Shown: piece by piece, positions 34,911 through 35,066 of the stretch
How positions within the stretch are numbered: position 1 is the stretch's first letter
Layout: every line of letters starts with the position of its first letter
Source of the DNA: Dehalococcoidia bacterium
GTDB lineage: Bacteria > Chloroflexota > Dehalococcoidia > SM23-28-2 > RBG-16-64-32
Length of the DNA stretch: 64,000 nucleotides
Assembly: GCA_040882565.1 (NCBI GenBank)
Contig: JBBEAZ010000018.1
Location: 1,635-65,634 of the forward strand
Direction of reading: 5' to 3'
Notes under the pieces: model-generated
What the model was told of the DNA's origin: nothing
What the model saw: only the letters and a program-made list of their open reading frames with translations
Database searches by the model: none
Translations under genes and position numbers: made by a program

Positions 34911-35066
34911 TAGACGGAAGGTGCAGCGGAGCCGCTGCCGGGGGGTCTTGGGGGGTGTCCCCCCAGTGCCACCACCTCGCGGGCGGGTGGGTGGGCCGCA
35001 CAGCGTCGCGCGGGGTGCGAAAGTGGAGCCGAACACCCAACGCCGGAGCAGCGCTCCACGGGAACC
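34911..35066 (+). repeat. copy A of the roughly 130-150 nt GC-rich structured dispersed repeat
   Basis: It contains AAGGTGCAGCGGAGCCGCTGCC-GGGGGG(loop)CCCCCC-CGGGCGGGTGGG-GGCCGCACAGCGTCGCGCGGGGT-GTGGAGCCGAACACC. It ends 56 nt before the ATG of the secreted Cys/Asp-rich protein. Confidence 0.65.

Follow-up and report, generated by a model that had tools for sequence, protein, structure and literature searches.

A previously undescribed family of ~130-nt, G-rich intergenic repeats in an uncultured Dehalococcoidia bacterium

Here, we report a repeat family in one uncultured Dehalococcoidia bacterium that is real and was previously undescribed, with a unit of ~130 nt that is G-rich and intergenic. 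To our knowledge, no such repeats have been described from this Dehalococcoidia lineage. We consider it probable that the element is a lineage-restricted, non-autonomous, non-coding dispersed repeat of ~130 nt, REP/BIME-, ERIC-, BOX-, or MITE-like in kind, and that it is probably mobile. This reading is favored because the family is dense and lineage-specific, is absent at orthologous sites, has a conserved end that bears hairpins, includes deletion variants and decayed fragments, and occupies mixed intergenic contexts.

RESULTS

Copies of the repeat and their limits

Our analysis was centered on a window, i.e., the whole stretch of DNA analyzed (64,000 nt), to which ~19 kb of flanks from the same genome were added (assembly GCA_040903865.1, contigs JBBDUN010000003.1 and JBBDUN010000007.1, the proteins of which exactly match those of the window). 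The 25-mer GGTGCAGCGGAGCCGCTGCCGGGGG was found to occur exactly at positions 5307-5331 (minus strand), 34920-34944 (plus strand), and 53513-53537 (plus strand) of the window, and with one mismatch at 61555-61579 (plus strand; copy C); none of 100 dinucleotide-preserving shuffles of the window contained a match. A repeat finder run on the window recovered the same loci, and a BLAST comparison of copy against copy returned 71.5-80.7% identity over 111-146 nt, in agreement with the ~70-80% pairwise identity given by a first-pass annotation of this DNA. The same annotation had counted five copies, four of which (A, B, C, and E) proved to be full copies, but the fifth (D) is only a weak remnant. 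Two more members, F and G, came from the added flanks and are numbered on locus L011.

Copy A: 34918-~35050, plus strand; exact 25-mer, nhmmer E 5e-31, covariance model 69.6 bits
Copy B: 53511-~53640, plus strand; 25-mer, BLAST, nhmmer, covariance model, and G-quadruplex (G4) motif
Copy C: 61554-~61685, plus strand; 25-mer with one mismatch, BLAST, nhmmer, covariance model, and G4 motif
Copy D: 60888-60950, plus strand; nhmmer E 0.46-0.7, 5'-module covariance model 15.5 bits (E~0.025)
Copy E: 5333-~5200, minus strand; 25-mer, BLAST, nhmmer, and covariance model
Copy F: L011 13006-13101, minus strand of the window, just left of position 1; covariance model/alignment, internally deleted
Copy G: L011 14538-14592, minus strand of the window, just left of position 1; hairpin 1 fused to the G-tract

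Collectively, ~83 kb of this genome hold five substantial copies, one clear fragment, and one doubtful fragment. Along the chromosome, the left-hand copies (E, F, and G) are on the minus strand and the right-hand copies (A, B, D, and C) on the plus strand. DnaA boxes in the window occur at chance level and GC skew follows gene orientation, with no origin signal to tie the strands of the copies to replication.

The 5' edge of the element, at (A)AGGTGC, is sharp and gives way to left flanks that are unrelated between copies, while the 3' edge is ragged; the right limit of copy A was set by the native flank that is common to relatives. When the left flanks were checked for target duplication, a check that is bounded by the ragged 3' limit, no duplication could be delimited and no common motif was seen beyond a C/G before AAGG. 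In addition, no pair of terminal inverted repeats was common to the five copies examined. Copy D displays 74% identity to copy C over 47 nt (BLAST) and is probably a decayed 5' fragment at best.

A near-invariant 5' module and a variable remainder

A full copy consists of three parts: a near-invariant 5' module of ~50 nt that carries two hairpins, a G-tract box, and a 3' part that is poorly conserved.

Hairpin 1 of copy A: 34923-34938, plus strand; GCAGCG-GAGC-CGCTGC, from alignments
Hairpin 2 of copy A: 34940-34964, plus strand; a G-run, a spacer, and GGGGGG-TGT-CCCCCC, from the predicted fold
G-tract box of copy A: 34981-34995, plus strand; GGGCGGGTGGGTGGG, canonical G4 motif with 1-nt loops
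G-tract box of copy B: 53571-53587, plus strand; GGGCGGGTGGGAGGGGG, canonical G4 motif
G-tract box of copy C: 61615-61629, plus strand; GGGCGGGCGGGTGGG, canonical G4 motif

The 5' module reads AAGGTGCAGCG-GAGC-CGCTGCC, followed by the G-run/C-run hairpin, and the 22-mer GGTGCAGCGGAGCCGCTGCCGG belongs to it. Hairpin 1 spans 16 nt, with AAGGT before it and CGGGG after it, and its stem is identical in copies A, B, C, E, F, and G as well as in L001, a copy from a second genome (see below), all 7 pairs being invariant. Its loop is variable (GAGC in most copies, GAGG in C, and GCGT in F). The fold predictions place hairpin 2 in each full copy. Five copies and L001 are identical over the 5' 25-28 nt, and the remainder of the element is ~60-75% identical. 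The 5' module is also the part retained in the truncated and internally deleted versions.

To call G4 motifs, we required four runs of at least 3 G with loops of 1-7 nt. Five canonical motifs were found on the two strands of the window, three of which are the boxes of A, B, and C, and these boxes are the only motifs in the window with 1-2-nt loops. The G-tracts are intact in the three copies, yet the loop bases vary, a pattern that could reflect selection at the host level or for structure. In copy E, the box is altered to GGAGGAGGGGCGGGGGG, and no canonical G4 motif was detected in E, F, G, or L001, though the box stays G-rich; that of L001 contains three GGGG runs plus GG.

The first-pass annotation had named several boxes as common to the family. 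They do occur, but only in some copies: A, B, and C carry CGGGCGGGTGGG, A and B alone carry GGCCGCACRGCGTCGCGCGGGGT, and GTGGAGCCNRACRCC, which belongs to the 3' part, was found in A, C, and E. As a whole, the element is G-rich on the given strand (40-46% G), with a GC skew of +0.13 to +0.27 in the clear copies, unlike the plus-strand-gene regions of the window, where GC skew is negative.

RNA family searches and structure tests

That the repeats correspond to no named RNA family, as proposed at the outset, was borne out by our searches. Rfam 15 at gathering thresholds gave no match in the whole window, permissive Rfam searches of A and C returned chance matches only (E 0.3-8; eukaryotic or viral families), and ARAGORN found no tRNA or tmRNA in the window. 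The repeats had also been called structured, which applies to the two 5' hairpins but not to the remainder of the element. More specifically, folding z-scores against shuffled controls were -0.6, +1.4, -0.9, -2.1, -1.8, and -0.35 for whole copies and -0.6, +0.8, -0.9, -0.1, -1.8, and +1.6 for 3' domains, with no consistent excess of folding energy over shuffles in either set.

RNAalifold on five copies gave an unfavorable covariation term (+3.68). Pair counting on the RNAalifold structure yielded a covariation score of 0.192 vs 0.155 in shuffles, a level reached by 20 of 500, which for five to six sequences has little power and, under the caveats of the tool itself, does not count as evidence. 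Hairpin 1 is uninformative on covariation because its stem never varies, and the G and C runs of hairpin 2 likewise mean that it offers no informative covariation. In folds read by eye, the G-tract box could pair with the 3' box in A and C, with one U-A to C-G exchange; this fold is not common to B, E, and L001. On these predictions, the two 5' hairpins are the only robust structural feature, and they would form equally well in single-stranded DNA.

Flanking genes, promoters, and terminators

Copy A has a fructose-1,6-bisphosphate aldolase/phosphatase gene (33657-34802) on its left and a secreted-protein gene (ATG at 35122) on its right. Copy B is flanked by a lipoprotein-like gene (52876-53370) on the left and, on the right, by an arginase-family gene (ATG at 53672), the flanks of B being assigned with Pfam. 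Copy C follows a treble-clef zinc-finger gene (61062-61454) and precedes a TPR gene (61939), copy E starts 32 nt past the stop of a deoxyhypusine-synthase-like gene (5365-6441, minus strand), and an ApbA-family gene has its GTG ~19 nt beyond the end of copy F. Copy D sits in the divergent spacer between rpmH and the zinc-finger gene. The contexts are therefore mixed, comprising a terminator-promoter spacer (A), positions past a gene stop (C and E), and divergent promoter regions (D, F, and G), and the neighboring genes have no common function according to Pfam and public gene calls.

The first-pass annotation placed the repeats 30-90 nt upstream of start codons. This distance applies to A (72 nt) and B (~32 nt), but it is 112 nt for D and ~254 nt for C, and the ORF downstream of E (4776-5183, minus strand) is doubtful, as the public gene call prefers the opposite strand; its GC3 is 0.61 vs 0.85-0.92 in typical genes. 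The region adjoining copy E (window 4557-5364) has low GC3 and contains overlapping ORFs at 4606-5091 (plus strand) and 4776-5183 (minus strand), neither with a Pfam match, and it may be a decayed or foreign segment. Since F and G occupy divergent spacers, where either orientation faces a gene, orientation is informative in A, B, C, and E only. All four are oriented the same way as their neighbors (P~0.06-0.12, not significant), which, at n = 4, could point to selection at the RNA level.

Polyamine-related genes are clustered in the window (arginine/ornithine decarboxylase, 7206-8537; AdoMet decarboxylase, 6449-6835; deoxyhypusine-synthase-like, 5365-6441), and two arginase-family genes were noted at 53672-54544 and 62881-63825. 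Three repeat copies adjoin polyamine-related genes, which we judged to be coincidental. A polyamine regulon, suggested by the arginase-family and deoxyhypusine-synthase-like neighbors, was rejected, given that unrelated genes adjoin A, F, and G and that relatives do not retain the element.

Three signals close to copies A and D were mapped, none of which is part of the element.

Terminator-like hairpin with T-rich tail: 34824-34848, plus strand; after the aldolase/phosphatase gene, upstream of copy A
GGAAC-N17-CGTCT motif: 35061-35087, plus strand; downstream of copy A, upstream of the gene for the secreted Cys/Asp-rich protein
Sigma-70-like promoter TTGATT-17-TATAAT: 60976-61004, plus strand; for the zinc-finger gene, downstream of fragment D

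Reading of the L001 sequence placed a sigma-70-like promoter (TTGGCA-17-TAGAAT) downstream of its element as well. By eye, -10-like hexamers follow the element at B (GATACT, 53659-53664) and at F (TATACT, L011 13107-13112), 7-8 nt before the starts of the arginase-family and ApbA-family genes, respectively, a placement that points to leaderless mRNAs in this organism. At 61732-61747, ~50 nt after copy C, lies a terminator-like hairpin with a T-run, and no terminator was found after A, B, or E. In ~83 kb of this genome, Pfam and public gene calls revealed no transposase, integrase, or HUH gene (RAYT or TnpA) and no TnpB gene.

Occupancy of the copy A site in related genomes

For related genomes, we used nine loci (~87 kb), reached by way of proteins homologous to the aldolase/phosphatase (83-94% identity) or to YidC (76-78%). 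Searches of these ~87 kb with nhmmer and a covariance model found no copy of the element, vs 6-7 in ~83 kb here.

The gene order of aldolase/phosphatase, small secreted protein, Ham1, and MoaA is kept in L004, and the first gene pair (aldolase/phosphatase and secreted protein) is kept in L005 and L014. In the window, the spacer after the aldolase/phosphatase gene is 320 nt long and consists of the terminator-like hairpin, ~65 nt of other sequence, and the element. The same spacer is 91 nt in L004, with nothing inserted, 240 nt in L014, with unrelated sequence and without the element, and ~630 nt in L005/L006 (the closest relative), with 2.5 copies of an unrelated ~139-nt repeat. The copy A site is thus occupied differently in each relative, and such presence/absence differences at an orthologous site are those expected of a dispersed mobile repeat.

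L005 and L014 also have the terminator hairpin, and the GGAAC-N17-CGTCT motif, which resembles an ECF-sigma promoter in form, is invariant in an alignment of four genomes (the window and three relatives without the element), ~35 nt before the start codon. With the terminator before it and the gene's own conserved promoter after it, copy A therefore lies between the two. As far as these alignments go, copy A was inserted into a spacer where other repeats accumulate as well, and it does not belong to a conserved leader.

Other repeats and a T-box leader

The ~139-nt unit (CCGTTCCCTGAGCGCAGCCACAGGCGCAGCGAAGGGCC...) represents a third, unrelated repeat family, found after the aldolase/phosphatase gene at L005 4505-4942 and L006 1795-2066. 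A 42-nt fragment of it (88% identity) was observed at window 60817-60857 (minus strand), adjoining fragment D. A second family is made up of tandem heptads, (GGAACNN)n, in four intergenic spacers of the window. The heptad pattern GGAACNNGGAACNNGGAAC has 25 matches in the window vs 0 expected, and one array contains ~20 units. A pattern scan located the arrays as follows.

Heptad array: 17145-17171, plus strand
Heptad arrays in inverted arrangement: 22900-22926, plus strand, with 22938-22969, minus strand
Heptad array: 28130-28268, minus strand
Heptad array: 41750-41779, minus strand

The inverted pair would give a long hairpin between groES and groEL. None of the 16 fetched loci, relatives included, contains the heptad family. 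The NCBI contig JBBDUN010000003.1 starts inside the long heptad array, and the array therefore probably breaks assemblies.

In two relatives, L007 and L008, the zinc-finger gene is followed by ileS, with a T-box leader upstream of the latter. The leader was mapped to 7103-7359 (minus strand) of L007, with 86.4 bits and an E value of 1.8e-19, just under the Rfam gathering score of 93, and to ~6290-6560 (minus strand) of L008. The corresponding part of the window (61455-61938) has no ileS and no detectable T-box, and instead holds copy C, an AT-rich stretch, and the TPR gene; the search that returned the L007 leader gave no T-box match at C or A. The best non-family covariance-model matches in all relatives fall in this ileS T-box, which occupies the site syntenic to copy C. 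In L008, its Stem I includes GGCGCAGCGGAGCCGCTG, identical to hairpin 1 at 17 of 18 positions, with an exact match of only 15 nt (E~0.02). This match may be due to chance or may be a trace of the origin of the 5' module. A family seeded from Stem I of the ileS T-box leader would be a weaker variant of the domesticated-module reading discussed below, and we treat it as a lead and not as a finding.

Distribution beyond this genome

An exact-pattern scan of 185,579 species genomes (one per species) returned a single match, L001, which is a 2.4-kb contig of another uncultured Dehalococcoidia MAG and carries ~105 nt of the element. No match was obtained in JGI metagenomes (exact pattern, also with the loop left free), in viral contigs (exact-pattern scan), in plasmids (blastn), or in a literature search for the core 16-mer. 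As these scans and the loci of the relatives were otherwise empty, the family is confined to a very narrow lineage, where it occurs densely.

The window also encodes two tandem paralogues (45796-49176 and 49400-52783), i.e., thrombospondin-type-3-repeat proteins of ~1126 aa with 86% protein identity and stretches of up to 97% DNA identity. In a database of 5.8 billion sequences, matches to them at E<=1e-30 were confined to three other proteins. Used as a route to more of the same genome, these paralogues (5 matches) led to no new contigs.

DISCUSSION

Our data document directly the multiplicity of the element, its sharp 5' edge and conservation gradient, its absence in relatives, the variable occupancy of the copy A site, and its placement upstream of promoters. 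We postulate that the element multiplied in this Dehalococcoidia genome and settled in intergenic spacers, as a rule in the gap that separates the end of a transcription unit from the promoter of the following one. The spreading machinery would recognize the invariant 5' hairpin module, and its most plausible agent would be a trans-acting, hairpin-recognizing HUH/Y1 transposase of the IS200/IS605 or RAYT type; AAGGTGCAGCGGAGCCGCTGCC is the element sequence that would flank the gene of such a mobilizing enzyme. The remainder of the element would drift, suffer internal deletions (as in F and G), and decay (as in D). The element is presumably neutral to its host, and it may be tolerated through landing in non-transcribed spacers. 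The orientation bias, if real, might stem from strand-specific insertion or from selection against the C-rich complement in transcripts, which is speculation. What argues against a mobile repeat is that no transposase gene occurs in ~83 kb and that no terminal inverted repeats are common to the copies.

Several known repeat systems resemble the element in part. Like REP/BIME sequences with their RAYT (TnpA-REP) enzymes, it is short, non-coding, intergenic, multi-copy, lineage-specific, and built around a conserved hairpin, which in REP/BIME is the recognition site of a trans-acting HUH enzyme. REPs as outlined in PMC3733652 are single palindromes of 20-40 nt, one end of which carries a GTAG or CGTC tag. 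In contrast, our element is modular and has a hairpin preceded by AAGGT, and no RAYT gene was found in ~83 kb; with a unit of ~130 nt, hairpin 1 flanked by AAGGT and CGGGG, and no 20-40 nt palindrome tagged with GTAG or CGTC, a strict REP is ruled out. MITE-type elements such as the Correia elements of Neisseria are similar in being 100-150 nt long, intergenic, near promoters, and different in presence or absence between relatives. Correia elements, like other MITEs, are bounded by terminal inverted repeats and flanked by target-site duplications; our copies, in contrast, have no terminal inverted repeats in common, which rules out a classical MITE. Of the options listed in the first-pass annotation, a mobile REP/MITE-like element is thus the one favored by the absence in relatives, the variable A site, and the decayed or deleted copies D, F, and G, with the exception that it is not a classical MITE.

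ERIC sequences of enterobacteria and BOX sequences of pneumococci are likewise dispersed, ~100-200 nt long, intergenic, and modular or imperfectly palindromic, with deletion variants. ERIC is one long imperfect palindrome, whereas only the 5' third of our element clearly forms hairpins; compared from general descriptions, ERIC and BOX also differ from it in phylum and have no sequence similarity to it. The PATEs derived from IS200/IS605 share with the element the lack of terminal inverted repeats, a subterminal hairpin by a sharp end, and a possible strand bias. PATEs have no target duplication, and they need hairpins at both ends and a cognate TnpA. Our element differs in that its conserved hairpin is found at one end only and that ~83 kb contain no TnpA or TnpB gene.

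Could the host instead make use of the repeat as a DNA module, with a protein bound at the 6-4-6 inverted repeat, or with the hairpins and the G4-prone tract acting upstream of promoters as an operator, insulator, or barrier? The invariant 5' inverted repeat would fit such a role, as would the location of the window's three strongest G4 motifs in A, B, and C, where G-tracts are intact while loops vary, and the position of the element upstream of predicted promoters at A, D, and L001 and of by-eye -10-like hexamers at B and F. However, hairpin 1 and the nearest predicted promoter are separated by anything from ~63 to 130 nt, a spread that also weakens the shared promoter or operator module proposed in the first-pass annotation. 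No common function links the neighboring genes, relatives lack the element at these loci even though their promoter is conserved, C and E come directly after genes and not before promoters, and the G4 motif is not kept in E, F, and G; we therefore regard a host-used module as unlikely. Slightly more doubtful still is a domesticated, strand-specific module, whose double hairpin and G4-prone tract would insulate transcription units or form a barrier between them, or would act on the neighboring promoter as a G4/hairpin switch, at the DNA or RNA level.

Readings at the RNA level fare worse. A multi-copy family of independent small RNA genes would be in keeping with copies that are intergenic and strand-consistent with their neighbors, and with the T-run hairpin ~50 nt after C, but the unrelated left flanks mean that there is no shared promoter, A, B, and E have no terminator after them, truncated copies exist, and neither thermodynamics nor covariation lends support, so that we hold this to be very improbable. 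The lowest probability falls to a cis-acting 5' leader RNA (a riboswitch or attenuator) controlling the downstream gene, another option of the first-pass annotation. It would account for the two stable 5' hairpins and for copies on the same strand as, and near, a start codon at A (72 nt), B (~32 nt), and F (~19 nt from GTG). A leader role is unlikely because, at A, D, and L001, predicted promoters come after the element; at A, moreover, a terminator precedes the element and the promoter that follows is conserved in four genomes. In addition, the element matched no Rfam family, its RNAalifold covariation term was +3.68, its z-scores ranged from -2.1 to +1.4, and the fold of its 3' domain is not common to B, E, and L001. 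The downstream genes are unrelated and, unlike true riboswitches, the element is not conserved in relatives.

A dispersed repeat, our preferred reading, makes this a new small-repeat family from an uncultured Dehalococcoidia lineage; the kind is already known, and the family is new. It accounts for long intergenic spacers, and it is the kind of repeat that breaks assemblies. It also carries a caution, in that conservation within one genome is by itself no ground for calling such elements riboswitches. If the G4/hairpin module acts on transcription, or if the spreading enzyme is found, the family could become a model for how repeats spread and are tolerated in small streamlined genomes.
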